Assembly: GCA_039188975.1 (NCBI GenBank)
Contig: JBCCYT010000003.1
Coordinates: 2,703-66,702 of the forward strand
DNA: 64,000 nucleotides
Source: Actinomycetota bacterium
GTDB lineage: Bacteria > Actinomycetota > Acidimicrobiia > Acidimicrobiales > Aldehydirespiratoraceae
Direction: 5' to 3'
The notes under the pieces: generated by a model
Seen by the model: the letters and a program-made list of their open reading frames with translations, nothing else
The model's database searches: none
Told to the model about the DNA's origin: nothing
Position numbers and translations under genes: made by a program
In this document: positions 6,041-29,868 of the stretch, piece by piece
How positions within the stretch are numbered: position 1 is the first letter of the stretch
How the letters are laid out: each line of letters starts with the position of its first letter

Positions 6041-6303
6041 CAAACCCGATCGACGATTTCGCATCCGCCGACTGTGGCCAGAACAGTCCGTGCGTTTCGC
6101 AGTTCCTCGATGAGTGTCCACAGAACATGGAGTGCCAGGAGGTCATCCAGGCGCTGGTCGCCAAGTGCGGCACCTGCAGCGATTCGTACACGTTCGAGAT
6201 GCGGGTGCGGACGGTGGTTTCGAAGCGGTGTTCTGATGAGGTGCCTGATGCATTGAAGGCGAAGATCTTCATGGCGCTGCAGCAGGTTCGCGACGAACGC
6301 TGA
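6037..6303 (+). CDS. rshA: RsrA/RshA-type (ZAS) anti-sigma factor
   Basis: An 88-aa Cys-rich protein translationally coupled to sigH. It has a CGTC (CxxC) motif and a C-terminal [17 protein letters not shown] segment resembling RsrA LVKRCCGQDDVPGDLRAKV. Confidence 0.8.
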
Positions 6304-6362
6304 TCAGCTTCAGCCGCGATCGTGGCGATCTGTGATGCCTATGTGACATTTCGGTGTCGGGT

Positions 6363-6389
6363 GGAACTAAACGGGCCACTCGCTCCGTT
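6363..6389 (+). promoter_or_regulatory. candidate ECF (SigH-like) promoter: GGAAC-N19-GTT
   Basis: GGAAC lies at 6363-6367 and GTT at 6387-6389. The ATG at 6399 is ~10 nt downstream of the -10 element, which fits a leaderless transcript. The spacer is 1 nt longer than the classical GGAAT-N18-GTT. Confidence 0.35.
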
Positions 6390-6398
6390 ATTGCGGGC

Positions 6399-6578
6399 AT
6401 GCGGGTTATCGGAGAGAAATTCACCAGTATCGAACGCAACCTCCCCGTGATGGATGAGGGCCGGGTGTGCCTGGAAACCGACTGTGAGACGAAGCTGAGT
6501 CGGTACAACGATCAGGAGTACTGCTCGTTGCATGCGCCGATGGTCGTCCCCCGGATGCGAGGCAAGGTCCTCGACTGA
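6399..6578 (+). CDS. small zinc-ribbon-like protein (59 aa), function unknown
   Basis: The ORF-track entry 6354-6578 is trimmed here to the ATG at 6399. It has a C-x4-C ... C-x2-H pattern (CLETDCETKLSRYNDQEYCSLH) and high GC3. Confidence 0.5.
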   Translation: MRVIGEKFTSIERNLPVMDEGRVCLETDCETKLSRYNDQEYCSLHAPMVVPRMRGKVLD

Positions 6579-6667
6579 GAGGACGGTGTTGAGGTCCTCG
6601 ACTGAGAGGACGGTGTTGAGGTCCTCGACTGAGAGGACGGTGTTGAGGTCCTCGACTGAGAGGACGG
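6566..6667. repeat. perfect 27-bp tandem repeat, 3.8 copies, each copy a hairpin
   Basis: The unit GGTCCTCGACTGAGAGGACGGTGTTGA occurs at 6566, 6593 and 6620, with a 21-nt partial copy at 6647. Each unit contains the inverted repeat GTCCTC/GAGGAC. Confidence 0.97.
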
Positions 6668-6753
6668 GTGGGTCGAACGGCTCATGAAGGTCGTGACTTG
6701 AACCGCACCGCCCGGCTCTTCTGTGGTCGTGCGGGCCAGCCGATGCTGCGGGG

Positions 6754-9096
6754 GTGACCATTCGTGCGCGAGTTGCGGCGTGGCGCCTGACTCGGGTCGG
6801 TGTTGCCACCGTGATCTGTGGCGTTGTCGCGTCGTTGGTCGGTGCTGCGGTGATGGTCAATGTCGAGCGAGGCCGCCAGCGGTCGTTCACGGCGAATGCT
6901 GCTGAGGCGGAAGCAGCGATTGAGACGCGGCTTGCGGTGTACGAAGAGGTGCTGGAGGGGATCCGTGGTCTGTACCGGTCTGACTTCGGGGTTGACCGGG
7001 CGGAGTTCCATCGGTTTGTGGATGTCGACGGCCTGATTGCGCGTTGGCCGGGTATCGACGTGGTGGGTTTTGCTCGGCGGCTGCCGGCGGAGGCGGTGCC
7101 GGCGTATGAGAGTGCGGTGCGGAGCGACACAACGCTCCATGTCGGCGGCTATCCCGATTTCGCCGTCCGGCCCCAAGCGGTCGTGGGCGCGGATGCGGTG
7201 GTGTTGGAGTTTGTCGAGCCGATGGCCGGCAACGAGGCGTCGCTCGGCTTTGATCTGTCGAGCGATCCCGACCGCGCTGCGGCGATGATCGCTGCTCGCG
7301 ATACGGGTCAACCGTCGGCGACGGCACCGGTGCAGCTGGAGAACCGGTCGACGGGTGCATCGGGTGTCGTGCTGCTCGCTCCGTTGTTCGATGGCGATGC
7401 GACGCGCATTGCGGACCGGCGAGCGAACATCGCCGGTTATGTGGTTGCCAAATTTCGAGTCGATGAGATGTTGTCGGAGGCTACGGCCACGGTTCCGCTT
7501 GGGGTGACGGTGGTCGATGCGTCGGTTGAAACGGAGCGGGCTGGTTTGTTGCTCGGCGGTGATGACGCGTCGGGGCGTGAACTCACGTTCGATGTCTCGT
7601 TTGGGGGTCGGACGTGGCTGGTCCAGGTGCACGACGGGGCGTCGTCGCTCCCGCTGGGTGTTCCGGGACCGGCTTTTGTTGCGGCGATCGGGTTGGTACT
7701 GACGCTGTTGCTCACCGTGCTCTTCGAGAACCTCGTGCGGTCGTACCGCGATGTGGTTGGGCGGGCGGCGCTTGGCTCTGAGGTTCGGCTCGACCCGATC
7801 ACCGGTTTGTTGAATCGGTTCGGGTTGGCGGAAGCGGTCGCGGTGGAGCTGGAAGCCGCCGATGATCCCGCGAAGGTCGCGGTCGTCTTGCTCGACATCG
7901 ACATGTTCAAACGGGTCAATGACGAGCGTGGTCGGGCGGCAGGGGACGACTTGTTGCGGGCGGTAGGGCGGGCGATTCAGCGCAGTGCGGGGGATGACGC
8001 GTTTGCGGGTCGGTTGGTCGGCGACCAGTTCGCGGTGGTGCTGTGCGACCGAACGGCTTCTGGCGAACGGGCGTTGGCGTTGGCGCACGGGGTCCGTCGT
8101 TTGATCGCGACGATCCATGAGGTGGGCCGGATCCCGATCGCGGTGACGGCAACGGTTGGTTTGGCGTATGGCCGAGATGCTGATTCCGAAGTGTTGTTGA
8201 ACGATGCCGGAGCGGCGCTTCATGAGGCGAAGCGAGCTGGTGGTGACCGGGTCGAGGTGTTCGACCAGAAGCTTCGGCAGCGGCTCGAACGGCAGATGCG
8301 GCTCGAGACCGATCTGCGGGTGGCGGTGCAGGAACGACAGTTCGTTTTGCGGTACCAGCCCCAGGCGAGCGCCCGCACTGGCGAGATCGTCGGTTTCGAA
8401 GTTCTGATCCGTTGGGAGCACCCGGAGATGGGGTTGCTCGGGCCGCAGGACTTCGTGGAGGTTGCGGAGCAGGCCGGGATCGTGCAGCACCTCGACCGTT
8501 TCGTGATCGAGGAGGCAGCCCGTCAGCAACGGGCGTGGCGCGAGCAGCTCGGTCGCCCGGTTGAGCTCGGCGTCAACTTGTCGGGCGTGACGCTGGTGAA
8601 AGACGCAATCGTCGACGTGGTCCGCCAGGCACTCACTCGGTACGAGATGCACCCGAGCGATTTGTGTATCGAGATTACGGAGACGGCGATCATCGATTCT
8701 CCGGAGCTGGCGCAGTCTCGCTTGGAGGCGCTTCGAGCGTTGAGTGTCCGGATCGATCTCGATGATTTCGGCACCGGGTATTCGTCGCTGACCCATCTGC
8801 AGCGGATGCCGCTCACGGGGATCAAGGTCGATCGGTGTTTCGTGAGCGGGATGACGACCGAGGCGAAGGATGCGGCGATCGTCGAGGCGTCGATTCGGCT
8901 GGCCCAGCAGCTCGGCTTGCGGGTCGTGGCTGAGGGGGTCGAGGACACGGCGCAGGCCGCATATCTCGATGCGCTCGATTGTGATCTCCTGCAGGGCTAC
9001 CTGGTCGGGCGACCGTTGAGCCCTGAGCAAGCGACGGAACTGTTGGCGGCGGGCACAATCGTGCCGGTCACCGGCGGTTCGGTTCGTCGTGGCTGA
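6754..9096 (+). CDS. membrane sensor (CHASE-like periplasmic domain) with a degenerate GGDEF domain and an EAL phosphodiesterase domain
   Basis: An N-terminal TM helix is followed by a ~280-aa extracytoplasmic domain and a second TM helix. The GGDEF fold carries VGDQF in place of GGDEF. The EAL domain has EVL, EITE, DDFGTGYSS, KVDR, EGVE and QGY. Confidence 0.85.
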   Translation: MTIRARVAAWRLTRVGVATVICGVVASLVGAAVMVNVERGRQRSFTANAAEAEAAIETRLAVYEEVLEGIRGLYRSDFGVDRAEFHRFVDVDGLIARWPGIDVVGFARRLPAEAVPAYESAVRSDTTLHVGGYPDFAVRPQAVVGADAVVLEFVEPMAGNEASLGFDLSSDPDRAAAMIAARDTGQPSATAPVQLENRSTGASGVVLLAPLFDGDATRIADRRANIAGYVVAKFRVDEMLSEATATVPLGVTVVDASVETERAGLLLGGDDASGRELTFDVSFGGRTWLVQVHDGASSLPLGVPGPAFVAAIGLVLTLLLTVLFENLVRSYRDVVGRAALGSEVRLDPITGLLNRFGLAEAVAVELEAADDPAKVAVVLLDIDMFKRVNDERGRAAGDDLLRAVGRAIQRSAGDDAFAGRLVGDQFAVVLCDRTASGERALALAHGVRRLIATIHEVGRIPIAVTATVGLAYGRDADSEVLLNDAGAALHEAKRAGGDRVEVFDQKLRQRLERQMRLETDLRVAVQERQFVLRYQPQASARTGEIVGFEVLIRWEHPEMGLLGPQDFVEVAEQAGIVQHLDRFVIEEAARQQRAWREQLGRPVELGVNLSGVTLVKDAIVDVVRQALTRYEMHPSDLCIEITETAIIDSPELAQSRLEALRALSVRIDLDDFGTGYSSLTHLQRMPLTGIKVDRCFVSGMTTEAKDAAIVEASIRLAQQLGLRVVAEGVEDTAQAAYLDALDCDLLQGYLVGRPLSPEQATELLAAGTIVPVTGGSVRRG

Positions 9097-16404: not shown

Positions 16405-16482
16405 CCCGACGAAACGGCGAGACACCCATCTGAGATACTCGGGACCAGCGGGATGCGGCGGCATCCCTGTCTGGAGAAACCC

Positions 16483-17880
16483 ATGCCGAACCATGATGTG
16501 CTCGATGTCGACCTCGACGGTCCGTCGAAACGGTCGAATTGGCGGGCCCGTGTCACGGTGATCATCGGGTTGCTCGCCCTGATCGGCGCCGCGGCCGCCG
16601 TGCTACAGATGACGGACACAAACGGCACCAACGATCCAGACGCGATCGACCAGACACCCGACGATGAGGAAGACACCGTGCTCGGTGAGGTCGTGGTCGA
16701 GATCCAAAGCGCGGGGCGCGCCGACGGACTCGACTCGCTGCGAATGCCGATGGTTGCGTCACCCAACGACGGCCTCGTCGACGGCCAACAGGTCGCACTG
16801 AGCGCAGCCGGCTTCCAACCAAACACCACGATCGCGACGGTGCAATGCGCCGCGACACCCGGATCGATCGGCGGCGAAAGCAACTGCGATGTCGGGAACT
16901 ACACCCTTCACTCCTCCGACGAGAACGGAGAGATCAAGGTTCGCATGACGGTCCGCCGCTACATCTCCACCGCCAACGGCGAAGTCGACTGCGCCAACCC
17001 CGGCGAGTTCCAGTGCGTCATCGCCGCTGCCAACATCTCCGACTACGACGAATCGGCGACCGCCGACGTCTGGTTCGACCCGACCGTCGACGGCGAACGA
17101 GGCCCGATCATCGAGGTGTCGCAGCTCGACGGACTGCATGACGGCGACATCGTCACCGTGAGCGGCACCGGCTTTCCGCCGGACGCGCCCGTCATCGTCG
17201 GGCAGTGCATCGTCGGTGGTTCATGGAGTATCTACGGGTGTTGGGATCTTGATGCCCGCCTTGCCGATGTCGTGGCGGACTCGCAGGGCTCCTTCAGCGT
17301 CGAGGCGAACGTGCGCCGGGTGGCGAACGGCAACCAAGACTGTTTTGCCTCGCTCTACGGCTGCCGCATCGCCGCCCGAGCCGACGTCACCCCGTTCGAA
17401 CTCGGCGACGGCACCGCCACCAACCCGGTGCGGCTCTGGTTCGACGGCACCACACAGCCCGACGACCTCGCATACGGCGTGGCCTACTCGTTGAATCCCG
17501 ACCGCAACCTCGCCGATGGCGAGGTCGTGACCTTGGCGATGAGCAACCTCACCATCCTTGCCGAGTGCACTGAGCACGAGTTGCTCGACGCCGACGGCGA
17601 CGTGGTCGAGGTCTGGGCCGACTGCCGAGAAGTGCCCCTCACCGACGGCACCGTCACCGCGATGCAATGCGTCGATCTCGCAGCCGGCGAGGAGTACTGC
17701 ACCGACGCCGTCGAACTCGAGGTTGCCGACGGTACTGCGAGCGGGTCGGTCACTGTCCAGCGCTTCTTCCTCCGGGAATCCGGCGAACGGGTCGACTGCG
17801 CCGAACCAGGCCGGATCTGCGAACTGCGCCTCGGCGGCGACATCGCCGGTTACGTGCCGCTGCGGTTCGCCGGCGACTGA
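16483..17880 (+). CDS. membrane-anchored secreted protein with three tandem neocarzinostatin-like domains
   Basis: An N-terminal TM helix is followed by three ~110-aa repeats. Each has a DG-x-V-x-[LV]-S-x-x-GF...QC start and a paired-Cys end (VDCANPGEFQCVIAA, QDCFASLYGCRIAA, VDCAEPGRICELRL). Start is ATG 16453 or 16483. Confidence 0.6.
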   Translation: MPNHDVLDVDLDGPSKRSNWRARVTVIIGLLALIGAAAAVLQMTDTNGTNDPDAIDQTPDDEEDTVLGEVVVEIQSAGRADGLDSLRMPMVASPNDGLVDGQQVALSAAGFQPNTTIATVQCAATPGSIGGESNCDVGNYTLHSSDENGEIKVRMTVRRYISTANGEVDCANPGEFQCVIAAANISDYDESATADVWFDPTVDGERGPIIEVSQLDGLHDGDIVTVSGTGFPPDAPVIVGQCIVGGSWSIYGCWDLDARLADVVADSQGSFSVEANVRRVANGNQDCFASLYGCRIAARADVTPFELGDGTATNPVRLWFDGTTQPDDLAYGVAYSLNPDRNLADGEVVTLAMSNLTILAECTEHELLDADGDVVEVWADCREVPLTDGTVTAMQCVDLAAGEEYCTDAVELEVADGTASGSVTVQRFFLRESGERVDCAEPGRICELRLGGDIAGYVPLRFAGD

Positions 17881-17893
17881 CGGCCGCTGCGCC

Positions 17894-17937
17894 GTTAACC
17901 GAACGTTCAGATAGGCCGCTCTGACCGTTCACCCAGT
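17894..17937 (+). promoter_or_regulatory. PHO-box-like direct repeats upstream of pstS
   Basis: GTTAACC (17894), GTTCAGA (17905) and GTTCACC (17927) keep 11-nt phasing, and the 17916 unit is degenerate. The array ends ~40 nt before the pstS ATG. Confidence 0.6.
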
Positions 17938-17977
17938 AGCAGTCGAAAGCAAACTTCGGATCCGTAGCTTGCGCGGC

Positions 17978-19090
17978 ATGCAAACAACGAACCTGCAACG
18001 GGCCCGCCTGCTCGTCATCTTGCTCACGGTCTTCTCGCTCGTCGTCGCTGCTTGTGGCAGCGACGAGGAAGAGACCACAGCCGAGTCGACCGACGCTGCG
18101 GCGAGTTCGGAAGCCTCCAGTGACGCAGGAAGCTCCGACCTCGAGGGTGAGTTCCTCGTCTCGGGTTCCTCCACCGTGTTCCCCATCGTGCAGAAGCAGG
18201 CCGAAGAGTTCGCCGCCGCCAACCCCGGCGTTGCCATCTCGGTCGAGGGGCCCGGCTCCGGCGACGGCGCAGCCTTGTTCTGCGAAGGCGAGATCCCGAT
18301 CGGCAATGCCTCGCGTGCCTACAAAGACGAAGAGATTGCCAACTGTGAAGCCAACGGCATCGAGTTCATCGAACTGCGGCGCGGCATCGACGGCATCTCG
18401 GTCATCACCTCCGCCGACAACGACGCCGTCGACTGTGTCTCGTTCAACCAGCTCTACGCCCTCATCTCCACCGACGCTCAGGGCGTTGAATCATGGGCCG
18501 GCGGCAACGACATCCTCACCGCGATCGGGTCCGGCGCCGACGCGCTTCCCGACGCGCCACTCGACATCTTCGGTCCGGGTGAAGAATCGGGAACCTTCGA
18601 CTCGTTCGGCGAGATCGTGATCGAAGCGGTCGCCAAGGGCAAGACCGGTCTCGACACCGAGGCGTATGCGTTCACCGACGAGATTCGCCCTGACTACCAG
18701 TCCTCAGGCAACGACAACGTCATCATCGAAGGCATTGGTTCGAGCGCCACCAGCCTCGGTTGGGTCGGCTTCGCCTTCGCCAAGGAAGCCGAGGAAGCCG
18801 GTGAGGCGAAGCTCCTCGCCGTGTCGAAGGAAGACGGCGGCGACTGCATCATCCCGAGCCCGGAGACCATCGCCTCGGCCGAGTTCCCGATCGCTCGTTT
18901 CCTCTACACCTACGTCAACGCCGAAATGGCGGCCAACGACCCCGCCGTTGCCGCCTTCGTCGACTACATGATGAGTGACACCGGCCTCGAAGCAGTCACC
19001 GCCGCCGGCTACATCGACCTCTCTGAGGCAGACCAGTCGCTCGCTCAGACGGTCTGGGCGGAGCGCATCACTGGCCGCAGCTTCAGCTGA
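17978..19090 (+). CDS. pstS: phosphate ABC transporter substrate-binding lipoprotein
   Basis: It has a lipobox (LVVAACGS) and PstS-family motifs (GSSTVFPIVQ, GPGSGDG). Confidence 0.88.
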   Translation: MQTTNLQRARLLVILLTVFSLVVAACGSDEEETTAESTDAAASSEASSDAGSSDLEGEFLVSGSSTVFPIVQKQAEEFAAANPGVAISVEGPGSGDGAALFCEGEIPIGNASRAYKDEEIANCEANGIEFIELRRGIDGISVITSADNDAVDCVSFNQLYALISTDAQGVESWAGGNDILTAIGSGADALPDAPLDIFGPGEESGTFDSFGEIVIEAVAKGKTGLDTEAYAFTDEIRPDYQSSGNDNVIIEGIGSSATSLGWVGFAFAKEAEEAGEAKLLAVSKEDGGDCIIPSPETIASAEFPIARFLYTYVNAEMAANDPAVAAFVDYMMSDTGLEAVTAAGYIDLSEADQSLAQTVWAERITGRSFS

Positions 19091-19216: not shown

Positions 19217-19255
19217 GTTCACCGTCCGTTCACCCAAAGGTGGTGAACGTTCAGA
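19217..19255 (+). promoter_or_regulatory. PHO-box-like direct repeats upstream of the second pstS
   Basis: GTTCACC occurs at 19217 and 19228 (11-nt spacing), followed by the inverted GGTGAAC at 19242 and GTTCAGA at 19249. The array lies ~50 nt before the ATG at 19306. Confidence 0.6.
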
Positions 19256-19305
19256 CAACCCCCCTCGTGCGGTCAACTCGCCGCCGTAGCGTCGCGACCG
19301 TCGCT

Positions 19306-20442
19306 ATGTCCTCATCGCTTCCCACGTCCCAACAGCGGCTCGTTTCGATGGCCGTCGTCGCCCTCGTCATCGCCGTCGTTGGCGTTGTCGTCGACTCGGT
19401 GACCGGCGACCCGGAAACCGCAGCGGCCCCGACGGCGGTCACTGCAACGGAAGATGTCGAAGAAGAGCGAGTCCCGCTCGCCGAGCTGACCGGCGAGTTC
19501 AACGTGGCAGGATCGTCAACGGTCTTCCCGATCGTGCAGCTCCAGGCCGAGCGATTCAAGGAACTCGCCCCGGGTGTCGCCATCTCCGTCGAGGGACAGG
19601 GTTCCGGCGACGGTGCCCAGCTCTTCTGTACAGGTGAAGTGCCGATCGCCAACGCGTCCCGCCTCTTCAAACAAGAAGAGATCGACCTGTGCGCCGACAA
19701 CGGCATCGAGTTCATCGAGATCCGGCGAGCGGTCGACGGCATCACCGTGATCACGTCGCCAGCAAATGACGCCGTGGACTGTGTGTCGTTCAATGACCTC
19801 TATGCGCTGCTCTCGTCGGAAGCACAGGGTTTCACGGCGTGGTCCGACGCCAACACCCTCACCTCGGCCTGGGGTGGCACCGAGTTCCCCGATGGCCTCG
19901 AGCTCGACATCTTCGGTCCCGGTGAAGAATCCGGCACCTTCGACTCCTTCACCGAGATCGTCATCGAATCGGTCGCCGACGGTGATACCGGCCTCGACAC
20001 CGCCGCTCGGGACTTCGTCGAGACGATCCGCCCCGACTACTCGTCATCGGGCAACGACAACGTGATCGTCACCGGTGTCGAGTCGAGCAGCCACTCCATC
20101 GGTTGGATCGGCTATGCGTTCGCGGCCGAAGCCGCTGAAGCCGGCAGCGCGAAGCTCCTGCGGGTCTCGGTCGAAGACGGCGGCACCTGCGTGAGCCCCA
20201 ACGAAGAGACGATCGGCGCGGCGGCGTTCCCCATCTCTCGTTTCCTCTACACCTACGTCAGCGCCTCGGCCGCCGAAACAGATCAGGCGGTGAGTGATTT
20301 CGTCGACTACATGCTCTCCGACGAAGGTCTCGAGGCGGTGAGCGAGGTCGGCTACATCGACCTGCCAAACGCGGACCGTACGAGAGCGAACACGATCTGG
20401 CGGGCCGGCCTCACCGGCTCGGGTCAGTGGACCGAGGACTGA
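19306..20442 (+). CDS. pstS: phosphate-binding protein paralog (signal-anchored, no lipobox)
   Basis: It is roughly 65% identical by eye to the upstream PstS over the mature domain. The N-terminal helix LVSMAVVALVIAVVGVVV has no Cys. Confidence 0.85.
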   Translation: MSSSLPTSQQRLVSMAVVALVIAVVGVVVDSVTGDPETAAAPTAVTATEDVEEERVPLAELTGEFNVAGSSTVFPIVQLQAERFKELAPGVAISVEGQGSGDGAQLFCTGEVPIANASRLFKQEEIDLCADNGIEFIEIRRAVDGITVITSPANDAVDCVSFNDLYALLSSEAQGFTAWSDANTLTSAWGGTEFPDGLELDIFGPGEESGTFDSFTEIVIESVADGDTGLDTAARDFVETIRPDYSSSGNDNVIVTGVESSSHSIGWIGYAFAAEAAEAGSAKLLRVSVEDGGTCVSPNEETIGAAAFPISRFLYTYVSASAAETDQAVSDFVDYMLSDEGLEAVSEVGYIDLPNADRTRANTIWRAGLTGSGQWTED

Positions 20443-20443
20443 C

Positions 20444-21919
20444 ATGACGACCACGATCACGGCTGAAGACCTCACCATCGAACTCGCACCGGCCACCGGG
20501 CGCCCGCTCCAGCGTTGGCGGCGAGGGGTCACCCTGCTCCTCGAGGGTGTGCTCTACATCGTGATCACCTTGCTGGTCGCCATCGTCGAGTACTTCGTCA
20601 GTGGACCCATCACCGATTTCGGCCTGTCCAACTGGTGGATCGGCGCCATCATCTACGGCGGTCTCGAAGGCCACAGCTGGCCAGGCGCTCAGAGCTTCGC
20701 CATGCGACTCACCGGCAGCTCCGTGATGCTCGACCGTGGTGGCCATGCGGGCACGCTCCAGATGGCGCTACGACAAACGCTCCGCTTCTTGCTGCTCTAC
20801 GGCTTCGCCATCTGGGGCATCGAACTCGTCGGTGGTTCGTTCAATGTGGCGTGGATCGCCTTTGTCGCCGTCGGTGTCGGTGTCGTCACGGTGGTGATGG
20901 AACGGCTCGGGCTCGGTGCCAAAGCGCCATGGGACTTCGCCATCGGCGGATCGGTCGTCGAAGGGGCGATGAGCGGTGCTGCGTTCGAGCTGGCGCCGGT
21001 TCGTTCCACCACCGATCTTCAGCTCGCACCCGCCCGAGCCGCCCAAAACCGTCGGGCGCAAAACCTGATGCTCATCGCCGGATTGTCCTCCGTCGTCGTG
21101 AGCGTCCTGATCGTCTACAACATCTTCACCGAGGCTGCCGTCTTCGTCGCCGACGCCGAGTTCAGCTGGGGCCTGCTCTTCGATGAAGGCTGGTTCCCCC
21201 GCCGCGGTCAGTTCGACCTCTCCACCCTCTTCGTCGGCACCCTGTGGGTGACGCTCATCGCCATGGTCGTCGCCGCCCCCGTCGGTATCGGCGTTGCGTT
21301 CTACCTGTCGGAGTACGCCACCGAGCGGACGCAGCGGTTCGCCAAGCCGCTCATCGAAACGCTGGCATCGATCCCGTCGGTCGTGCTCGGCCTGTTTGCC
21401 ATCAGCTTCATCTTTCCGAACATCCTTCGCCCGATCTTCAGCGACATCGGCATCTTCTCGTTGCTGGCTGCCGGCCTCGGCGTTGGCATCTTGACCATCC
21501 CGATCGTGGCGTCGATCTCCGAAGATGCGATGCGAGCCGTACCGCAGGAGCTGCGCGAAGCGAGCTACGGGCTTGGCGCTCGCAAAGCCACAACTGCGTT
21601 GCGGGTCGTCTTCCCGGCTGCAATCTCCGGCATTTCGGCCGCACTGATCGTCGGGATTTCGCGGGCGATTGGCGAGACCATGGTCGTCTTCATCGCGGCG
21701 GGTGGCACCGGCGGTCAGCTCTTCGAAACCGACCCAACCGAAGCCGGCCAGACCGTGACCGCCGCCATGGCTTCGGTGGCAGCCGGCACCGACTCGGTGG
21801 CCGGCTCCGGGCTCGCGTTCCAGAGCCTCTACTTCCTCGGCGCCTTGTTGTTCCTCTTCACGTTGTTGCTCAACGTGGCATCCGACTCCATCGTTCGTCG
21901 ATTCCGGCAGGTGTACTGA
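20444..21919 (+). CDS. pstC: phosphate ABC transporter permease PstC with an N-terminal RDD-like membrane extension
   Basis: Residues ~200-491 form a typical PstC core (EAA-loop region SEDAMRAVPQELREASYGLGA). Residues 1-~190 are an extra multi-TM module. Confidence 0.88.
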   Translation: MTTTITAEDLTIELAPATGRPLQRWRRGVTLLLEGVLYIVITLLVAIVEYFVSGPITDFGLSNWWIGAIIYGGLEGHSWPGAQSFAMRLTGSSVMLDRGGHAGTLQMALRQTLRFLLLYGFAIWGIELVGGSFNVAWIAFVAVGVGVVTVVMERLGLGAKAPWDFAIGGSVVEGAMSGAAFELAPVRSTTDLQLAPARAAQNRRAQNLMLIAGLSSVVVSVLIVYNIFTEAAVFVADAEFSWGLLFDEGWFPRRGQFDLSTLFVGTLWVTLIAMVVAAPVGIGVAFYLSEYATERTQRFAKPLIETLASIPSVVLGLFAISFIFPNILRPIFSDIGIFSLLAAGLGVGILTIPIVASISEDAMRAVPQELREASYGLGARKATTALRVVFPAAISGISAALIVGISRAIGETMVVFIAAGGTGGQLFETDPTEAGQTVTAAMASVAAGTDSVAGSGLAFQSLYFLGALLFLFTLLLNVASDSIVRRFRQVY

Positions 21920-21920
21920 C

Positions 21921-22835
21921 ATGCGTGGCGAAGCGTTCGACCCTTCAGCCCTCCGTCGTCGTCCAGGCGCCGACCGACCCGGTCAGGCGTTCTACGGCCT
22001 CATCGCGACCGCAGTCCTCATAGCGTTTGTCCTCGTCGCCGCGGTGGTCTGGGACGTCATTCAGGGGTCGTCCGACATCATGACGAGCCGAGCGTGGGAC
22101 TTCTTGACATCCCCGTTCTCGTCGAACCCTGACAACGCCGGTGTCGCCCAGGGCATCAGGGGCACCCTCATCATCGCCGCCATCGTCATCATGACTTTCC
22201 CGATCGGGATCGGCGCTGCGATCTACCTCGAGGAGTACGCGACCGACAACTGGCTGAGCCGCCTCATTCAGGTGACCGTGCGCAACCTCGCCGGCGTTCC
22301 ATCGATCGTCTACGGCCTGCTCGGTCTGGCCGTCTTCGTCCAGACGCTCGGTGGTCTGACGGGCGGCCGGTCGGTCATCTCGGGTGCCCTCACGCTTGCG
22401 GTGCTCGTCCTGCCGATCGTGATCATCACCTCCGCTGAAGCGATTCGGGCCGTCCCGAGCGCCTACCGAGATGGGGCCTACGGTCTCGGCGCGACTCAGT
22501 GGGAAACGATCCGCACCCAGGTGCTCCCCGCAGCGATGCCGGGCATCCTCACTGGCACCGTGCTCTCGATCGCACGTGCGCTGGGCGAAGCGGCGCCGCT
22601 GCTCGTTGTCGGCGCAGCAGGCTTCTACACGGTCGGCAACAACGACTTCCTCGATCAGATGCAAGGTGCGTTCACCGCCTTGCCGATGAACATCACGACG
22701 TTCACGAAAGAGCCGGCCGCCCTCTTCCGTGGCCACGCCTCGTCTGCCAGTCTTGTCCTGCTCGTCCTCGTCTTCCTGGTCAACCTGGTGGCGATCATCG
22801 GACGGGCCCGAATCGCCAAGCGTCTTGGGCGCTGA
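21921..22835 (+). CDS. pstA: phosphate ABC transporter permease PstA
   Basis: It has a typical PstA topology and the EAA loop ([21 protein letters not shown]). Confidence 0.9.
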
Positions 22836-22849
22836 TCTCCGGAGAAACG

Positions 22850-23698
22850 ATGTCCGTGACCGAGAACGAAACCGTCCCCCACGTGTCTGACCTCACCATC
22901 GACCAACGAGATGCAGACGCTGCCGCCGAGGTGTTCAACCTCGCCGACCTCAACGTCTACTACGCCGACAATCGCGCGGTCGCCGACGTCAACCTGACGG
23001 TGAAGGAACGAGAGATCACCGCATTCATCGGACCATCGGGCTGCGGCAAGTCGACCGTGCTGCGCTGCTTCAATCGCATGAACGACCTCATCCCGATCGC
23101 CCGGGTCGAGGGATCGGTGAAATACCACGGCGTCGATCTCTACGCTCCCGAGGTTGACCCGGTCGCGGTTCGTCGCCGGATCGGTATGGTGTTCCAGAAG
23201 CCCAATCCGTTCCCCAAGTCGATCTTCGACAATGTCGCCTACGGCCCCCGCGTCGGCGGCATGAAGGGCAACATGGAAGAGATCGTCGAGAGTTCGCTGC
23301 GACGAGCCGGCCTGTGGGACGAGGTGAAGGATCGTCTCAACGAGTCAGCGCTTGGCATGTCCGGCGGTCAGCAGCAGCGGCTGTGCATCGCCCGTGCGAT
23401 CGCCGTCAACCCCGACGTTCTTCTCATGGACGAACCGTGCTCGGCGCTCGACCCGATCGCGACCGGTCGTATCGAGGAACTCATGAAAGAGATCCAGAAC
23501 GACTACACGATCGTCATCGTCACCCACAACATGCAGCAAGCGGCCCGCGTCTCGGACCGCACCGCCTTCTTCACGGCCGAGCTCGATGACTCCGGGAACC
23601 GGCGCGGACGTCTTGTCGAGTTCGACGAAACCTCCACGATCTTCTCCAACCCGGCCGACGAGCGCACCGAGGCCTATGTGACCGGTCGGTTCGGATGA
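22850..23698 (+). CDS. pstB: phosphate ABC transporter ATP-binding protein
   Basis: Walker A is GPSGCGKST, the signature is LSGGQQQR, and Walker B is LLMDEP. The ATG at 22850 follows a GGAGA ribosome-binding site. Confidence 0.95.
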
Positions 23699-25137
23699 TG
23701 GAGAACCGCACGCAGCTCGACGAGCGGATCGGGTTGATCGAGCGGAACCTGCTCGAAATGATCGAGATGGTCGCCGACCGGGTCGGGCAGGTGACGACCG
23801 CGATGCTGGAAGGCGACATTGCCTTGGCCGACGATCTCGTGGCGCGAGACGACGAGATCGACCTGCTGTCGACCCAAGTCGAGGAAGGCTGTGTCGACAC
23901 GCTTGTACGTGAACAGCCGGTTGCATCGGACCTGCGTTTCATCGTGGGCACACTGCACGCCAACTCCGACGTCGAACGCAGCGGCGACCTGGTCGCCAAC
24001 ATCGCCAAGGCGGTCGGCCGCCTGCAAGGTGCCCATCCCGACGATCAAATTCGTGACCTCGTCGCTCACATGTCAGCCCAGGCCGTCGAGCTGTTTCGGC
24101 GGGCGGGGACGGCGTTTCGAACCCGTGACGCAGAGCTGGCCAAGTCGATCGACGAACTCGACGACCTCCTCGACGATCTCCACTACCGCTACATCCAGCA
24201 TGTGATTCAAGACGCTCGTCGCGGCGAGATCGATCCACAACAGTCGTTGCAGCTGGCGCTCGTCGGCCGCTTTTACGAACGGATCGGCGACCATGCGGAG
24301 AACATCGGGGAGCGAGTTCGTTACATCGTCGACGGATGGTCGCCTGAAGCGCAGGCCGCGGAACGGGCGAAGGCTCGCCTCGCTGGCCTCGCCGAGACGC
24401 CCGCGTCGCGAGGTCTCGCGGTGATCGACCAGATCGCCGAGGAACGCCGCATCGATGCCATTCGTCGCGACTTTGTTGCGAACGTCTCTCACGAACTCAA
24501 GACGCCGGTCGGGGCGATGAGCCTCCTTGCGGACACGATCTCCACCGAGCCCAACGCGGAAGATCGAACCCGCCTGAGCGACATGTTGATGCGCGAAGCG
24601 AAGCGGGTCGAAGACATCATCGATGACCTGCTGGAATTGACCCGACTCGAAGAAACCGAATCCGACACCGAAACCGTTGCGGTCGACGACGTTGTGAGCC
24701 GGTCGATCGAAAAGGTCAACGTCTTCGCGTCGACGCAACGGGTCGAACTGGCATCTGTCGGCGTGCCCAGTGGGCTCCTCGTGACCGGCGACCGTCGGGC
24801 GCTCGTGCGGGCCCTCACCAATCTGATCGACAATGCGGTGCGCTACAGCGAGTCCGACTCTCAAGTGACCGTCGTGGTCGAGGACCTGTCCGAGAACGTG
24901 GCGATCAGTGTCCGCGATGAAGGTGTCGGTATTCCTCGCACCGAACTCGAGCGGGTGTTCGAACGCTTCTACCGAGTCGACCGAGCCCGGAGTCGAGAGA
25001 CCGGCGGAACCGGCCTGGGCTTGGCGATCGTCCGGCACGTCGCCAGTAACCACGGCGGTCGCGTGTCGGTCGAATCCAAACCCGGTGACGGTTCGGTCTT
25101 CACGATCACCTTGCCGCTGGAGGCAACCGTTCTGTGA
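23695..25137 (+). CDS. PhoU-domain fused to a histidine kinase (cytoplasmic, no TM or PAS)
   Basis: Residues 1-~215 are a two-repeat PhoU ([12 protein letters not shown]...[13 protein letters not shown]; [18 protein letters not shown]). Then come the H-box [13 protein letters not shown], the N-box [10 protein letters not shown]1 DEGVGIP and G2 [10 protein letters not shown]. An ATGA overlap joins it to pstB and a GTGA overlap joins it to the regulator. Confidence 0.88.
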
Positions 25138-25835
25138 CCGATCTGATCAGCGTCCTGGTTGTCGATGACGAACCAGCGTTTCGGGAAGGGCTTCGTCAAG
25201 CCCTCAAACAGGAAGGGTTCATCGTGCACCTCGCCGCTGATGGCGAGGAAGCACTCGAGGTCTACCGGGCATATCACCCGGATCTCGTTCTGCTCGACGT
25301 GATGCTGCCCCGTATGTCCGGCATCGATGTCTGTCGCCAGATCCGAGCGGCGGACGACACGCCCGTCATCATGGTGTCGGCCCGCAACGAAGAGATCGAC
25401 GCTGTCGTCGCGCTCGAGGTCGGCGCCGATGACTATGTCTCGAAGCCCTATCGAGTGCGTGAGCTCGTCGCCCGCATGCGAACCGTCTTGCGTCGAGCCG
25501 GCACCGCACCGAACCAGCGCGACGAGACACCCGCATCGGTGCTCACGGTTGGAGAGATCTCCCTCGACCGAGACCGCCACGAGGTCGCGATCAACGGCGA
25601 GTCGGTGCAGCTGCCGCTCAAAGAGTTCCAGCTCCTCGCACTCCTGATGGAAAACGCCGGCATCGTCGTCACCCGCCAGACACTCATCGACCGGGTGTGG
25701 GGCTACGACTATGTCGGCGACACCAAGACCCTCGATGTGCACATCAAACGGCTGCGGGCCAAGGTCGAGCCGATGCCCGACAACCCCGAGCGCATCGTCA
25801 CCATCCGCGGGCTGGGCTACAAGCTGAATTCCTGA
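25134..25835 (+). CDS. OmpR/PhoB-family response regulator (RegX3/PhoP-like)
   Basis: The receiver domain has LVVDDE...LVLLDVMLP...VSKP. The winged-helix output has LDVHIKRLRAKVE and IVTIRGLGYKL. Confidence 0.92.
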   Translation: MTDLISVLVVDDEPAFREGLRQALKQEGFIVHLAADGEEALEVYRAYHPDLVLLDVMLPRMSGIDVCRQIRAADDTPVIMVSARNEEIDAVVALEVGADDYVSKPYRVRELVARMRTVLRRAGTAPNQRDETPASVLTVGEISLDRDRHEVAINGESVQLPLKEFQLLALLMENAGIVVTRQTLIDRVWGYDYVGDTKTLDVHIKRLRAKVEPMPDNPERIVTIRGLGYKLNS

Positions 25836-25848
25836 CAGGCCGCCGCCC

Positions 25849-26501
25849 ATGGCCGACCTGTACGAGACGATGAGCACGCTGCGGGCGGTGCGGCGTGTTC
25901 GCCCTGACCCGATTCCCGACGATGTGCTCGAACGGGTCTTGCAGGCGGCGTGTTGGTCGCCGACCGGCGGCAACACCCAGCCGTGGAAGGTCGTGGTCGT
26001 CACCGACCTCGAACGCAAGGCTGGGCTGCAGACCATCTACAAGGCCGAGTGGGATCCGTACGTGGTGCAGTTCCTCGACTCGAGCGAGTGGCCGGCACCC
26101 GCGACGAGGAGCAGTGGAAGAAGGTCGCGGACGCGGGCAATCGGCTGGCCGACAACCTCCACGAAGCCCCGGCCATTTTGCTATTCGCCGCCAATCCAGC
26201 GGCGATGGCGATCACCGATGCCAAGCTCGACCGCATCAGCATGGTCGGCGGCGGCTCGGTGTATCCGGCAGTGCAGAACGCCATGCTGGCGTGCGCCGCG
26301 GAAGGCCTCGGCTGCACGCTCACGACGCTTCACTGTCACCGCGAAGACGAGGTGAAGGCGCTGCTCGACATCCCCGACTCGTGGGCCACGGTCGCCATGG
26401 TGCCGATCGGCTACCCCGAGCTGAAGGGGCACGGCCCGATCACGAGGAAGCCCCCGTCGAAGATGGCCGCCCGCAATTCCTTCGAAGGCACCTCGCCCTG
26501 A
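25849..26501 (+). pseudogene. nitroreductase-family gene with a frameshift near 26080-26100
   Basis: The N-terminal ~78 aa (TLRAVRRVRPDPIPDDVLERVLQAACWSPTGGNTQPW) read in frame 1. The C-terminal ~135 aa (EEQWKKVADAGNRLADNLHEAPAILLF...GYP) read in the frame of ORF 25950-26501. Confidence 0.75.
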
Positions 26502-26562: not shown

Positions 26563-29500
26563 ATGTCGGAATCTCCCTTGCTCGCCGGTCTCAACCCGGC
26601 CCAGTACGACGCGGTTCTCCACGACGGCGGGCCGCTGCTCGTCGTCGCCGGTGCCGGTTCGGGCAAGACCCGAGTCCTCACCCATCGCATCGCCCACCTG
26701 ATCGAGCAGGGTCTGTCGCCGTTCGAGATCCTCGCCATCACCTTCACCAACAAGGCGGCAGGCGAGATGAAGCACCGCGTCGGTGGCCTCGTCGGGCCGG
26801 TCGCCGAGAAGATGTGGGTGTCCACGTTCCACTCGGCGTGTGTGCGCATCCTGCGGCGCGACGTCGAACGCCTCGGCTTCCCCGGTCGGTTCTCGATCTA
26901 CGACCAAGCCGACGCGGTTCGCCTCGCCGGCTATGTCATCCGTGACCTGAATCTCGATCCTAAGCGGTTCCCGCCCCGGTCGGTGCACGGCACCATCTCG
27001 ATGGCCAAGAACGAGAACATCGGCCCCGAGCAGTACGCAGCCGAGGCGGAGCAGATCTTTCAGCGCAAGATCGGCGACGTGTACGCCGAGTATCAGAAGC
27101 GCCTGCTCCAGGCTGGCGCCATGGATTTCGACGATCTCCTGATGCGTACTGCGCAGCTGTTCCGTGAACATCCTGACGTGCTCGACGGCTGGCGCCGGCG
27201 CTTCGGTCATGTGCTCGTCGACGAGTACCAGGACACCAACCCGGTCCAGAACGACCTCGTCCTCCAGCTAGCCGAGGAGCACCGCCAAGTCACCGTCGTC
27301 GGCGACAGCGATCAGTGCCTTCCGCCGGGGACGATGATCTCGACACCCCAAGGCGATCGCCCGATCGAGACACTTCGCGAAGGCGATCTCGTCTACGGCA
27401 CCGGCGGGTCGAACACGCCGGTGGCCCGTCCGATTCGTGAGGTCCGTAAGACACGCCACATGGGACGGCGCTATCGCATCCACGCCGGGGGTCGAACGAT
27501 CGAAGGGACACCTCACCACATCGTCCCGGCCCAGCTCACGCTCGACCCGTCGGCACATGTCGTCTACCTCATGTACCGACACGATCGCGGGTTCCGCGTC
27601 GGGCAAACCAAAGCGACGCGTCCCAACGGGAAGGGTGGCTTGGAGATCGGTCTGCGAGTCCGATGCAACCAGGAGCACGGCGACAAGGCCTGGATCCTGC
27701 GGGTCGTCGGTTCCTCGGCCGAGGCCTCCTGGTGGGAGGCCTACTACGCCGCCCAGTACGGGCTCCCGACAGCTTGTTTTCATTCCCTTGGCCGGAACCT
27801 GGCGATGGGAGCCGACGATCTTGCTCGGCTGTTCGATGCGCTCGACACCGAACAGGCGGCAAAGCAACTCTTCGAGGATCTTGATCTGCATGAGGAGTTC
27901 CCGCATCACCGACCGCAGAGCGGGGCGAATAGGCAGACGCTCAACCTCACGATGTTCTCCGACCACCGTTCTGGAGAGGTGGGGTACCACCGGCTTCAAT
28001 GGTCGTCCAACCGGCAAGACGTTGCGAAACGGCTGCTTGACGGCGGTTGGAACGTCCGGAAGTCCAAGCACGCATCGGTGCGTGTGGAGACATCACGGAA
28101 GAGCTATTGCGAAGCACTTTGGGAAGCCACGGCGATGTCTTGGGAGGGGCAGCTGGAAGTCAACCGTCGGATGGCCGTCGATGGCGAGATTTACGGCTAC
28201 CAACCGCTTAGCCACCTCCGCCCGGGGATGGTCGTGTTGGTGGAGACAGACCACGGCTTCGATCGAGTGGCAGTCGACGACGTCGAGATCTTTGAGGCGT
28301 CGGGCCCGGTCTACGACCTCGAAGTCGATGATGTGCACACGTATGTCGCTAATGGCGTGCTCGTGCACAACTCGGTCTATGCGTTCCGAGGCGCCGACAT
28401 TCGCAACATTCTCGAGTTCGAAGAAGCGTTCCCCGACGCCACCGTCGTCGTGCTCGAACAGAACTACCGATCGACCCAGTCGATCCTCGACGCGGCCAAC
28501 GCCGTCATCGCTCGCAACGTCGGCCGCAAACCCAAGGACTTGTGGACCGACAAGGGCGCCGGCGAGAAGATCGTTCGCTACCACGCCGACGACGAATCCG
28601 ACGAAGCCCAATTCGTCGCCAACGAGCTCGCCAAGCTCCACGATCACGACCACAAGCGATGGGGCGAGATGGCGGTGTTCTACCGAACCAACTCCATGTC
28701 GCGTGTCATCGAAGAGTTCCTGGTGCGGGTCGGGATCCCGTACAAGGTCGTCGGCGGCACCCGCTTCTATGACCGTCGCGAAGTGAAGGACGCGCTGGCG
28801 TACCTCCGGGCGATCGTCAACCCGACCGACGAGGTGTCGGTCAAGCGGGTCATCAACACCCCCAAGCGAGGGGTCGGCGATTCGTCGATCGGCAAGCTCG
28901 ACGCCTGGGCCTCCGCCAACGGCGAATCGTTCGACCAGGCGGTTCTGCGCTTCGACGAAGCCGGTGTCGGGGGTCGAGCCGCAACCGGTATCGAGAAGTT
29001 CCTGGTGCTGACCACCGAGATCCGCAAGCTCAACGCCGGTCCGGCCACTATCATCGAAGAAGCGCTCGAACGGTCCGGCTATCTCGAAGAGCTCCAGGCC
29101 GAGCGGTCGGTCGAGGCCGAAGGGCGGCTGGAGAACCTGTCCGAACTGGTCGGCATGGCTCGCGAGTACGAGACGGTCGACGACTTCCTCGAACAGGTTT
29201 CCCTCGTCAGCGACACCGACGACATCGACGAAGAGGAATCCCAGGTCACCTTGATGACCCTGCACTCGGCGAAGGGACTCGAGTTCCCCGTCGTCTTCTT
29301 GGTCGGCATGGAAGACGGTGTGTTCCCGCACATCCGGGCCCTCGGCGAACCAGCCGAACTCGAAGAAGAACGCCGCCTCGCCTATGTCGGCATCACCCGA
29401 GCGATGGAGAAGCTGCATCTCACGAGCGCATGGAGCCGGATGATGCACGGCCAGACGCAGTACAACCCGCCGAGCCGCTTCCTCGACGAGATCCCGTCCG

Positions 29501-29868
29501 AGCTGATCGAGGAGATCGGCGGCACCCGCATGTTGCGCTCACGCCGCGACCGCAGCGGAGGCGGCCGAACCTATGGCGGGGGAGGGGGCAGCGAGGTCCC
29601 GACCGGCCGGACCTTCGGCGGCGGTGGCCGCGACAGCCACCACGACGACGTCGTCGAAGCCGCCCTCGCCGCCGCCAACAAGCCGACCCCATCCGGAGCC
29701 GAAGCAATGGGCCTCAAGGTCGGCGACGACGTGCGCCACAACCAGTGGGGCGAAGGCGTGATCACCGACATCGAAGGCGCCGGCGACAAAGCCGAAGCGT
29801 CCGTCTACTTCGGCTCGGTCGGCGAGAAGCGGCTGCTCCTCAGCTGGGCCCCACTCGAAAAGATCTGA
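26563..29868 (+). CDS. pcrA: ATP-dependent DNA helicase PcrA/UvrD, interrupted by an in-frame intein
   Basis: Walker A is AGAGSGKT and motif II is DEYQDT. Motif III is split as VVGDSDQ | intein | SVYAFRGA. The C-terminal Gly-rich linker and Tudor-like tail (HNQWGEGVI) are present. The 1101-aa length compares with ~750 aa typical. Confidence 0.92.
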   Translation: MSESPLLAGLNPAQYDAVLHDGGPLLVVAGAGSGKTRVLTHRIAHLIEQGLSPFEILAITFTNKAAGEMKHRVGGLVGPVAEKMWVSTFHSACVRILRRDVERLGFPGRFSIYDQADAVRLAGYVIRDLNLDPKRFPPRSVHGTISMAKNENIGPEQYAAEAEQIFQRKIGDVYAEYQKRLLQAGAMDFDDLLMRTAQLFREHPDVLDGWRRRFGHVLVDEYQDTNPVQNDLVLQLAEEHRQVTVVGDSDQCLPPGTMISTPQGDRPIETLREGDLVYGTGGSNTPVARPIREVRKTRHMGRRYRIHAGGRTIEGTPHHIVPAQLTLDPSAHVVYLMYRHDRGFRVGQTKATRPNGKGGLEIGLRVRCNQEHGDKAWILRVVGSSAEASWWEAYYAAQYGLPTACFHSLGRNLAMGADDLARLFDALDTEQAAKQLFEDLDLHEEFPHHRPQSGANRQTLNLTMFSDHRSGEVGYHRLQWSSNRQDVAKRLLDGGWNVRKSKHASVRVETSRKSYCEALWEATAMSWEGQLEVNRRMAVDGEIYGYQPLSHLRPGMVVLVETDHGFDRVAVDDVEIFEASGPVYDLEVDDVHTYVANGVLVHNSVYAFRGADIRNILEFEEAFPDATVVVLEQNYRSTQSILDAANAVIARNVGRKPKDLWTDKGAGEKIVRYHADDESDEAQFVANELAKLHDHDHKRWGEMAVFYRTNSMSRVIEEFLVRVGIPYKVVGGTRFYDRREVKDALAYLRAIVNPTDEVSVKRVINTPKRGVGDSSIGKLDAWASANGESFDQAVLRFDEAGVGGRAATGIEKFLVLTTEIRKLNAGPATIIEEALERSGYLEELQAERSVEAEGRLENLSELVGMAREYETVDDFLEQVSLVSDTDDIDEEESQVTLMTLHSAKGLEFPVVFLVGMEDGVFPHIRALGEPAELEEERRLAYVGITRAMEKLHLTSAWSRMMHGQTQYNPPSRFLDEIPSELIEEIGGTRMLRSRRDRSGGGRTYGGGGGSEVPTGRTFGGGGRDSHHDDVVEAALAAANKPTPSGAEAMGLKVGDDVRHNQWGEGVITDIEGAGDKAEASVYFGSVGEKRLLLSWAPLEKI
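27316..28371 (+). mobile_element. intein (352 aa) within PcrA motif III
   Basis: Block A is C1 (CLPPGTMIS), block B is TPHH, block F is VYDLEVDDVHTYVANG and block G is VLVHN followed by +1 Ser. Removing it restores GDSDQSVYAFRGA. Confidence 0.88.

Follow-up and report, generated by a model that had tools for sequence, protein, structure and literature searches.

The window analysed here is a stretch of 64 kb from contig JBCCYT010000003.1 of an Actinomycetota bacterium of the order Acidimicrobiales; all positions are counted from its start. It contains a phosphate transport operon with the gene order pstS, pstS, pstC, pstA, pstB, fusion gene and response regulator (RR) gene, in which the fusion gene encodes a PhoU protein that is covalently linked to a histidine kinase. 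The fusion gene and the modules of its product, numbered in amino acids (aa), are located as follows:

23695..25137, plus strand: PhoU-histidine kinase fusion gene, 480 aa, no internal stop
23713..24336, plus strand: complete PhoU module, aa 7-214, six-helix bundle, TIGR02135 above cutoff
24334..24381, plus strand: C-terminal tail helix of PhoU, aa 214-229, from the AlphaFold2 (AF2) model and the alignment; also present on stand-alone Acidimicrobiales PhoUs
24382..24408, plus strand: fusion junction, hypervariable tether, aa 230-238, entropy 2.58 bits over 121 members
24409..24468, plus strand: remnant comprising the last PAS beta-strand, a DIT-like motif and the S-helix, aa 239-258, which aligns to the PAS end of the unfused and the long, PAS-containing forms
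24463..24654, plus strand: HisKA/DHp domain (Pfam HisKA), aa 257-320, with the phospho-acceptor His266 at 24490-24492 and an H-E-x-x-T motif
24787..25122, plus strand: HATPase_c catalytic domain (Pfam), aa 365-476, with N, G1, F and G2 boxes

Judged by its sequence, the N-terminal half of the product is a bona fide PhoU, although it is not stand-alone: PhoU proteins are typically separate proteins of ~210-250 aa, whereas this product has 480 aa and carries a C-terminal kinase. Two PhoU repeats are detected by Pfam (E 9.5e-34, best stretch aa 19-107), and the NCBIfam model TIGR02135 (phoU_full) scores 159.6 bits, which exceeds its curated cutoff of 130.25 bits, with aa 7-214 covering model positions 2-209 of 212; an earlier note on this DNA was thus right in describing a complete PhoU with both repeats. 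The E/DxxxD metal motif occurs in both repeats (ERSGD at aa 94-98, and ERIGD) and is invariant across the family, as is the alpha6 motif RxxERxxD(R/H), which reads R192-xx-E195-R196-xx-D199-H200. The PhoU moiety matches the solved PhoU structures 1T72, 4Q25, 1XWM and 2I0M by sequence, and a comparison with the sequences of solved structures retrieved none in which PhoU and a kinase are combined. In an AF2 monomer model, the PhoU bundle and the kinase core are predicted with confidence, and the predicted local distance difference test (pLDDT) score of the PhoU helices is mostly >90; it drops below 50 for aa 235-258, and the predicted template modelling (pTM) score is 0.50.

The C-terminal half qualifies as a bona fide HisKA kinase and descends from a local SenX3/PhoR-like kinase. 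Pfam recognizes HisKA at aa 257-320 (E 1.3e-15) and HATPase_c at aa 365-476 (E 4.6e-33), and all motifs that the earlier note had quoted for a standard HisKA/HATPase core are present in the translation. The features of class I HisKA kinases, namely the H-box histidine and the N, G1, F and G2 boxes, are all found. H266, E267 and T270 (H266-E267-L-K-T270, HExxT) are invariant in the family, and the same applies to the box residues N376/N380, D408-G410-G412, F422/F425 and G438-G440-G442. An E/DxxT/N sequence beside the phospho-acceptor histidine is a phosphatase motif; the invariant HExxT together with the four boxes therefore fits a bifunctional kinase/phosphatase. Among solved kinases, HK853 comes closest (E 9e-40), and the top-ranked families of the kinase core are the phosphate kinases PnpS and PhoR. 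The scores stay below the equivalog cutoffs (PnpS, 255.5 vs. 400 bits; PhoR TIGR02966, 236.5 vs. 334.2; PRK11006, 157.8 vs. 390) because the alignment is limited to the DHp-CA part. The N-terminal transmembrane (TM) anchor and cytoplasmic PAS domain that are the hallmark of PhoR/PnpS/SenX3-type kinases are lacking: no TM helix was found in the fusion protein (the best Kyte-Doolittle 19-residue window reaches 0.78; threshold ~1.6), and the linker gave no PAS match even at E<=1. PhoU is hence the only input module, as had been proposed.

The origin of this architecture can be read from its unfused relatives, which were collected in a scan of GTDB species genomes that is not a species census. Among the matches listed, other Acidimicrobiales have separate phoU, kinase and RR genes at the same position (L008, L015, L053, L055, L079, L016 and L027, of which L053 is a complete chromosome). 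The unfused phoU genes encode proteins of 235-256 aa, which score 164-176 bits against TIGR02135, and the unfused kinases comprise 385-430 aa, each with one strong N-terminal TM helix (Kyte-Doolittle maximum 2.35-3.32); a PAS domain scores above the Pfam cutoff in the kinases of L053 and L008. The kinase cores of fused and unfused proteins share 44-53% identity (best segment, among the matches listed). L071 (Desulfomonilaceae), which was listed as a full-length match, was discarded since it represents a kinase C-terminus followed by a separate phoU and no fusion. Descent and genomic position are thus shared with the phosphate kinase of related genomes, and the sequence comparison indicates that the fusion arose from an adjacent pair of genes encoding PhoU and a SenX3/PhoR-like TM-PAS kinase.

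The junction itself points in the same direction. The linker postulated in the earlier note exists, but it is not ~35 aa long; 42 aa separate the end of the PhoU model from the start of HisKA, and this stretch is not uniform. It consists of the PhoU tail helix, a variable tether of 8-19 aa and a conserved 20-aa remnant of the last PAS strand and the S-helix. Entropy and tether lengths were computed over 121 members of S1, the clade to which the window protein belongs; the tether has 8-9 residues in 90 of the 121 and ranges from 8 to 19, while the remnant (aa 239-258) is the most conserved segment of the protein with 0.40 bits vs. 0.68 bits for the DHp domain. According to the junction alignment, the PhoU tail (GW.PE..A.R.KAR.) is retained in all forms. 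At unfused loci, a stop comes after this tail; the kinase gene then starts and encodes, in this order, the TM helix, a spacer, ~105 aa of PAS, the last strand, the DIT-like motif and an S-helix leading into the H-box; in the window protein, the tail passes through a 9-residue junction directly into the last PAS strand and the S-helix. Relative to the unfused pair, the window gene lacks the stop of phoU, the TM helix and the PAS domain apart from its last strand and the S-helix. A rigid continuous helix from PhoU alpha6 to DHp was considered as a signal route, but is not supported, as the tail helix is separate, aa 235-258 are modelled with low confidence and the tether varies between 8 and 19 residues. 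S1 proteins furthermore possess a near-invariant loop, RRGxLDPQQSLQ, between alpha5 and alpha6, which aligns with the R184 region through which Salmonella PhoU contacts the kinase domain (PMC9239213). The idea that this loop is a general adaptation to the loss of PAS is weakened by a second PAS-less clade (S2, e.g., P0125), which does not have it.

A search of 5.8 billion protein clusters revealed >120 clusters of the 480-aa type with 62-93% identity and 453-500 aa, all of which combine PhoU, HisKA and HATPase_c. Their source assemblies come from NCBI, ENA, JGI and Logan, and the named members are almost all metagenome-assembled genomes of Acidimicrobiales, Acidimicrobiaceae or Actinomycetota. 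The architecture, which had been treated as singular, is therefore that of a large family whose sequences are already public and mislabelled: annotation pipelines label the proteins only as PhoU, and the NCBI pipeline (PGAP) calls them 'phosphate signaling complex protein PhoU', a name that covers less than half of the 480-aa protein. A full-text literature search did not find a description of a natural PhoU-kinase fusion; domain-architecture databases, which lay outside this search, very likely list it. A genome paper on a cultured Acidimicrobiia strain handles PhoU generically.

The gene context is conserved within the family. The arrangement pstSCAB-fusion-RR is kept in L001, L084 and L086/87, L003 has pstB-fusion-RR, and a homologue with 74% identity on a contig of 4.5 Mb is found in the order pstS-pstC-pstA-pstB-fusion-RR, after which come a short gene without annotation and a UvrD gene with an intein. 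An RR gene lies downstream of every actinobacterial-type fusion (PhoU-kinase order) examined. L004 (7881-10108) differs from the other actinobacterial loci examined in detail: it encodes the fusion and the RR, but no pst genes lie next to this pair. Because of the synteny of its flanks with the window (GMP synthase, 81% identity; UvrD, 81-83%), the label of this sequence as 'uncultured Gammaproteobacteria' was rejected as a binning error. Between its two pstS genes, L001 (3742-5554, minus strand) encodes a Na/Pi cotransporter and, separately, a PhoU-domain protein that is highly divergent, a YjbB-like pair in split form that does not occur in the window; with 44.8 bits vs. the cutoff of 130.25 and its pairing with the cotransporter, this stand-alone gene was rejected as a second canonical PhoU. 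L083, an ENA contig, contains a pstS-pstC fusion (696 aa) and a PstB-PhoU-kinase triple fusion (823 aa, P0294) at 2886-4976 and 6001-8472. A real chain of this kind would be remarkable, if true; however, P0294 is probably an indel artefact, given that the same contig also fuses pstS to pstC.

Further forms were obtained by an exhaustive HMMER pass over 1.84 billion representatives and by follow-up searches. The long form, PhoU-PAS-HisKA-HATPase, comprises 574-609 aa and ~20 clusters with 41-70% identity and has no TM helix; one of its members is named SenX3 by JGI. The second short clade, S2, is PAS-less and has 494-519 aa. Both occur in the same pstSCAB-fusion-RR context. A reverse-order family, (sCache/HAMP)-PAS-HisKA-HATPase-PhoUx2, includes ~16 clusters of 478-875 aa (P0193, P0324-P0337 and P0339), in which the membrane sensor region is sometimes kept. 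Its members are Deltaproteobacteria/Myxococcota-like metagenome sequences; one is named Deltaproteobacteria, and the nearest unfused relatives are PhoR proteins of Myxococcota. In L091 (6203-11005), the reverse-order gene lies between a response regulator gene and a polyphosphate kinase (ppk) gene, and in L090 (7001-9532), no RR or pst genes are found in the region recovered. The sister fusion forms are mostly TM-less, all those checked except for L090 have an RR gene alongside, and several have pst or ppk beside them. The distance from YERIGDH to the H-box is strictly bimodal with 50-68 or 142-174 residues and no intermediates. P0128, an S2-like protein of 396 aa known from one sequence on one 3.6 kb contig, has a single PhoU repeat joined directly to the kinase core and may be an internal deletion or an artefact.

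Neighbour-joining trees with 200 bootstrap replicates were calculated for the PhoU part, the kinase part and the concatenation; they are based on simple distances and a limited sample without outgroup. S1 is monophyletic (99% for PhoU, 97% for the kinase, 100% for the concatenation), and since this holds for both halves with 97-100% support, a single fusion took place, after which the two evolved as one gene. S2 also forms a clade, with the PAS-containing long form P0287 as its sister (96%, 90% and 100%). Groupings of all short forms, of all long forms and of all fused against all unfused proteins each receive 0% bootstrap support; fused and unfused lineages are interleaved, with single fused-unfused pairings reaching just 52-74%. 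It follows that PAS disappeared on at least two occasions, either during or after fusion, as S2 is sister to P0287 and the short forms do not group together, and a single fusion event behind all forms was rejected on account of the 0% support for the all-fused grouping. Counting the reverse-order family, PhoU and kinase were fused independently at least twice, probably more often. The earlier suggestion that the fusion is Rosetta-stone support for direct PhoU-kinase coupling gains strength from these results, because the unfused pair survives in sister lineages and fusions recurred.

The other genes of the operon and the repeats in front of its two pstS genes are:

17894..17937, plus strand: PHO-box-like 11-nt direct repeat units upstream of pstS1 (GTTAACCGAAC GTTCAGATAGG ccgctctgacc GTTCACCCAGT)
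17969..19090, plus strand: pstS1, phosphate-binding lipoprotein, PBP_like_2, E 2.1e-32
19217..19238, plus strand: PHO-box-like direct repeats upstream of pstS2 (GTTCACCGTCC GTTCACCCAAA)
19240..20442, plus strand: pstS2, second phosphate-binding protein, PBP_like_2, E 6.6e-34, probable true start 19306
20444..21919, plus strand: pstC permease, 491 aa, BPD_transp_1 at aa 281-487
21921..22835, plus strand: pstA permease, BPD_transp_1
22850..23698, plus strand: pstB ATPase, TIGR00972 PstB, 384.1 bits vs. cutoff 343.2
25134..25835, plus strand: OmpR/PhoB-family response regulator, Response_reg and Trans_reg_C

The pstB stop overlaps the start of the fusion gene (ATGA), and the stop of the fusion gene overlaps the RR start (GTGA), exactly as first described. 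Against the PhoB model TIGR02154, the RR scores 219.1 bits vs. a cutoff of 296.2; MtrA and YycF score higher, but they are also below their cutoffs. A role of the RR in the Pho response is supported by its position in the operon and by the repeats. The pattern GTTMA-N6-GTTCA has exactly two sites in the 64-kb window, 17894 and 19217, both just upstream of a pstS gene, where 0.06 would be expected for this pattern, which was chosen after the sites had been seen. As an independent check, related loci were inspected: L001 (both copies), L083 and L084 carry the repeat 85-125 nt ahead of pstS and at no other place, and a degenerate version of the pstS repeat is present in L086 and L087. The repeat units match the core of the Streptomyces PhoP unit consensus G(G/T)TCAYYYR(G/C)G, including the spacing of 11 nt (PMC2275107, PMC7866108). 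Due to the position of the repeats at 19217..19238, the true start of pstS2 should be the in-frame ATG at 19306 and not the GTG at 19240. Thus, the pst operon probably carries an operator for a regulator of the OmpR/PhoB type, as these sequence matches suggest, and the RR encoded at its 3' end is the obvious candidate for the predicted repeat-binding protein. A scan of the operon for sigma-70 promoters and terminators yielded nothing above chance. PstC of the window has an N-terminal extension of ~200 aa (20444-21100) with several hydrophobic segments, and Pfam finds nothing in its N-terminal 219 aa. PstC of L001 (S1 clade) is similarly long with 463 aa, and loci with long or S2 fusions have ordinary PstC proteins of 309-321 aa. 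This extension might be a membrane partner for the anchor-less kinase.

The sequence data show a single genuine gene, whose product is probably a soluble, bifunctional HisKA-type kinase/phosphatase with a complete PhoU as sole input and which would act as a Pho two-component sensor autoregulating pst. The fusion protein and the translationally coupled OmpR/PhoB-type regulator would together be the Pho two-component system of the organism, with the pst operon probably being autoregulated via the PHO-box-like repeats upstream of both pstS genes. What the sequences show directly is the domain architecture together with its conservation and origin, the intact motifs of PhoU and kinase, the layout of the operon and the repeats; the direction of regulation, the ligand and the repeat-binding protein we infer as follows. 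At sufficient levels of cytoplasmic inorganic phosphate (Pi), the PhoU bundle, loaded with Pi and metal, would sit on the DHp stalk at the position usually taken by PAS, held there by the tether of 8-9 residues, thereby keeping the DHp-CA core in phosphatase mode. When Pi falls, a conformational change of PhoU would turn the core into an autokinase, which would phosphorylate the regulator and induce pst. Docking of PhoU on PstB could provide an additional transport-flux input and feedback on transport, but would not be required.

This model draws on work in Mycobacterium smegmatis, the nearest system that has been characterised: purified PhoU1 together with Pi turns the kinase SenX3 into a phosphatase in the absence of Pst, Pi is still sensed after deletion of pstB, and the TM helix of SenX3 is dispensable (PMC12301784). 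The alpha6 motif RxxERxxD(R/H) was proposed as the Pi site in the same study (PMC12301784). Several points, however, weigh against the model. The PAS domain is essential for PhoU-dependent sensing in M. smegmatis (PMC12301784), which means that the contact geometry must differ in the PAS-less fusion; PAS might chiefly be a docking site for PhoU that is made redundant by the covalent tether. The equivalents of A147/R148 of Escherichia coli PhoU are not conserved in the fusion protein, which fits the absence of PAS. The placement of PhoU on the DHp stalk is conjecture, given the low pLDDT of aa 235-258 and the pTM of 0.50 in a monomer model without interdomain information. The repeat pattern was selected post hoc, and the part of the genome covered is the 64-kb window, in which no other PhoU or histidine kinase is encoded. 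To our knowledge, a PhoU ligand site has not been demonstrated in any species.

Alternatively, the PhoU moiety could be just an adaptor that docks the anchor-less kinase on PstB, the signal being the conformation of the transporter, and the earlier note had indeed concluded that phosphate is sensed purely through contact with PstB. The fusion gene is translationally coupled to pstB via the ATGA overlap and adjoins it in most loci, E. coli PhoU binds both PstB and PhoR (PMC4423584), and tethering to the membrane-bound transporter could offset the lost TM anchor. Furthermore, a kinase dimer would match the PstB dimer, and docking is possible insofar as translational coupling would match the amounts of both proteins. 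However, Pi sensing in M. smegmatis survives deletion of pstB, and PhoU1 with Pi suffices in vitro (PMC12301784); in L004, a locus syntenic with the window, pst is missing next to the fusion-RR pair, and the reverse-order fusions of L090 and L091 are not next to pst either. No variation is seen in the putative Pi-binding alpha6 motif or in either metal motif, and the adjacency to pstB is the ancestral position of phoU: as it was inherited from an ancestral pstSCAB-phoU arrangement, it carries no extra information. Sensing through PstB alone is thus unsupported and appears unlikely. By analogy with the M. smegmatis data, and in view of the invariant ligand motifs, L004 and the pst-unlinked reverse-order fusions, we favour sensing of cytoplasmic Pi and metal by PhoU itself. 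In its strongest form, which we hold only tentatively, PhoU would be a self-sufficient Pi input acting on the DHp-CA core, with the TM anchor and PAS being dispensable adaptors and contact with Pst being unneeded, as apparently shown by the repeated fusions in both domain orders and in apparently two phyla. The 480-aa S1 protein would then be a minimal single-polypeptide cytoplasmic phosphate sensor, and the 20-residue remnant of the PAS strand and S-helix would be the lever that sets kinase vs. phosphatase output.

PhoU modulates Pst transport in E. coli and Sinorhizobium, and the fusion protein could accordingly be mainly a transport regulator that throttles import by PstSCAB, with the kinase being secondary or serving a non-Pho regulon; it would agree with this that neither the kinase core nor the RR reaches the curated cutoff for PhoR and PhoB, respectively. 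Nevertheless, every one of the catalytic motifs is invariant, an RR is encoded alongside in all cases, the best families of the kinase core are PnpS and PhoR, and PHO-box-like repeats are located at the pstS promoters, so that we regard this explanation as very unlikely; roles in signalling and in transport are, moreover, not mutually exclusive. An artefact, i.e., a missed stop, a frameshift or a misassembly joining a normal phoU to a kinase gene, has to be considered because indels do exist in the window sequence, as illustrated by the frameshifted nitroreductase gene nearby (25849-26501), and because the related contig L083 shows probably artefactual gene fusions. Read-through of a stop, however, would retain the TM helix and PAS, while ~170 codons are simply absent here; the same ORF of 477-500 aa is carried by >120 independent clusters from NCBI, ENA, JGI and Logan, the linker length is bimodal without intermediates and the junction remnant is strongly constrained. 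The probability of a sequencing or annotation artefact is therefore negligible, and this explanation was rejected.

The fusion system functionally resembles PhoR-PhoB/PhoU and SenX3-RegX3/PhoU and does not constitute a new kind of system. The mycobacterial SenX3-RegX3 system with PhoU1/PhoU2 (PhoY1/PhoY2) comes from the same phylum, and SenX3 has the TM-PAS-HisKA-HATPase layout that is common to the unfused Acidimicrobiales kinases. In mycobacteria, PhoU acts negatively on the kinase by driving it into phosphatase mode, and the anchor is dispensable (PMC12301784). In contrast to mycobacteria, in which phoU genes are neither fused to senX3 nor described as adjoining it and PAS is essential in M. 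smegmatis, the fusion has PhoU covalently joined and has dispensed with TM helix and PAS; it is correct that the actinobacterial systems characterised so far consist of separate proteins with a membrane-anchored kinase (PMC12301784). The PstSCAB-PhoU-PhoR-PhoB system of E. coli and Salmonella has the same components, with pstSCAB followed by phoU, and its regulator is likewise of the OmpR/PhoB type and binds direct repeats. PhoU meets PhoR there via the PAS domain (A147/R148, PMC4423584) and touches the kinase domain itself (R184, PMC9239213); unlike the fusion, PhoR stands on its own as a membrane protein that has two TM helices and a PAS domain. In the PhoR-PhoP-PhoU system of Streptomyces, pstS is preceded by 11-nt direct repeat units whose core is GTTCA (PMC2275107, PMC7866108), and a phoU gene is linked to the two-component genes, both as found here, although PhoR is membrane-bound. 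In YjbB-type Na/Pi cotransporter-PhoU proteins, PhoU is also a covalent regulatory module on a phosphate-handling protein, but the partner is a transporter rather than a kinase; the PhoU-like domain of the split version in L001 scores 44.8 bits vs. 130.25.

Several observations were made on the genes surrounding the operon. Directly upstream of it, 16453-17880 (plus strand) encodes a 475-aa protein with two repeats of the Neocarzinostatin family (PF00960). The nitroreductase gene just downstream of the RR gene (25849-26501, plus strand) is split over two frames, with Pfam Nitroreductase positions 5-65 in the ORF 25849-26355 and positions 79-167 in the frame of 26100-26498; it is either a pseudogene or the product of an assembly indel error. 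The UvrD/PcrA helicase encoded at 26563-29868 (plus strand, 1101 aa) carries an intein of ~370 aa between UvrD-helicase and UvrD_C, which is indicated by Hint_2 at aa 252-295 and Intein_splicing at aa 570-603. The orthologue in L004 has no insertion of intein size (the match spans only 2.2 kb), and that in L001 (983 aa) gives a faint Hint_2 match.

As annotation pipelines name these kinases 'PhoU', Pho two-component systems will be counted as missing in Acidimicrobiales genomes. How phosphate is sensed in the Pho response is a long-standing open question, for which two views compete: either PhoU relays the flux through the transporter to the PAS domain of the membrane kinase, or PhoU senses cytoplasmic Pi itself. 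A soluble single-chain protein of 480 aa makes these competing models directly testable in vitro and is suited to structural work. The family provides strong comparative evidence that PhoU and the kinase act as a unit, since they were fused repeatedly and the ancestral pair is still visible in sister lineages, and that the membrane anchor and, in two lineages, also PAS can go once PhoU is tethered. The loss of the anchor agrees with the 2025 result from M. smegmatis, whereas the loss of PAS contrasts with the finding that PAS is essential there (PMC12301784), a contrast which suggests that PAS is mainly a docking site for PhoU.

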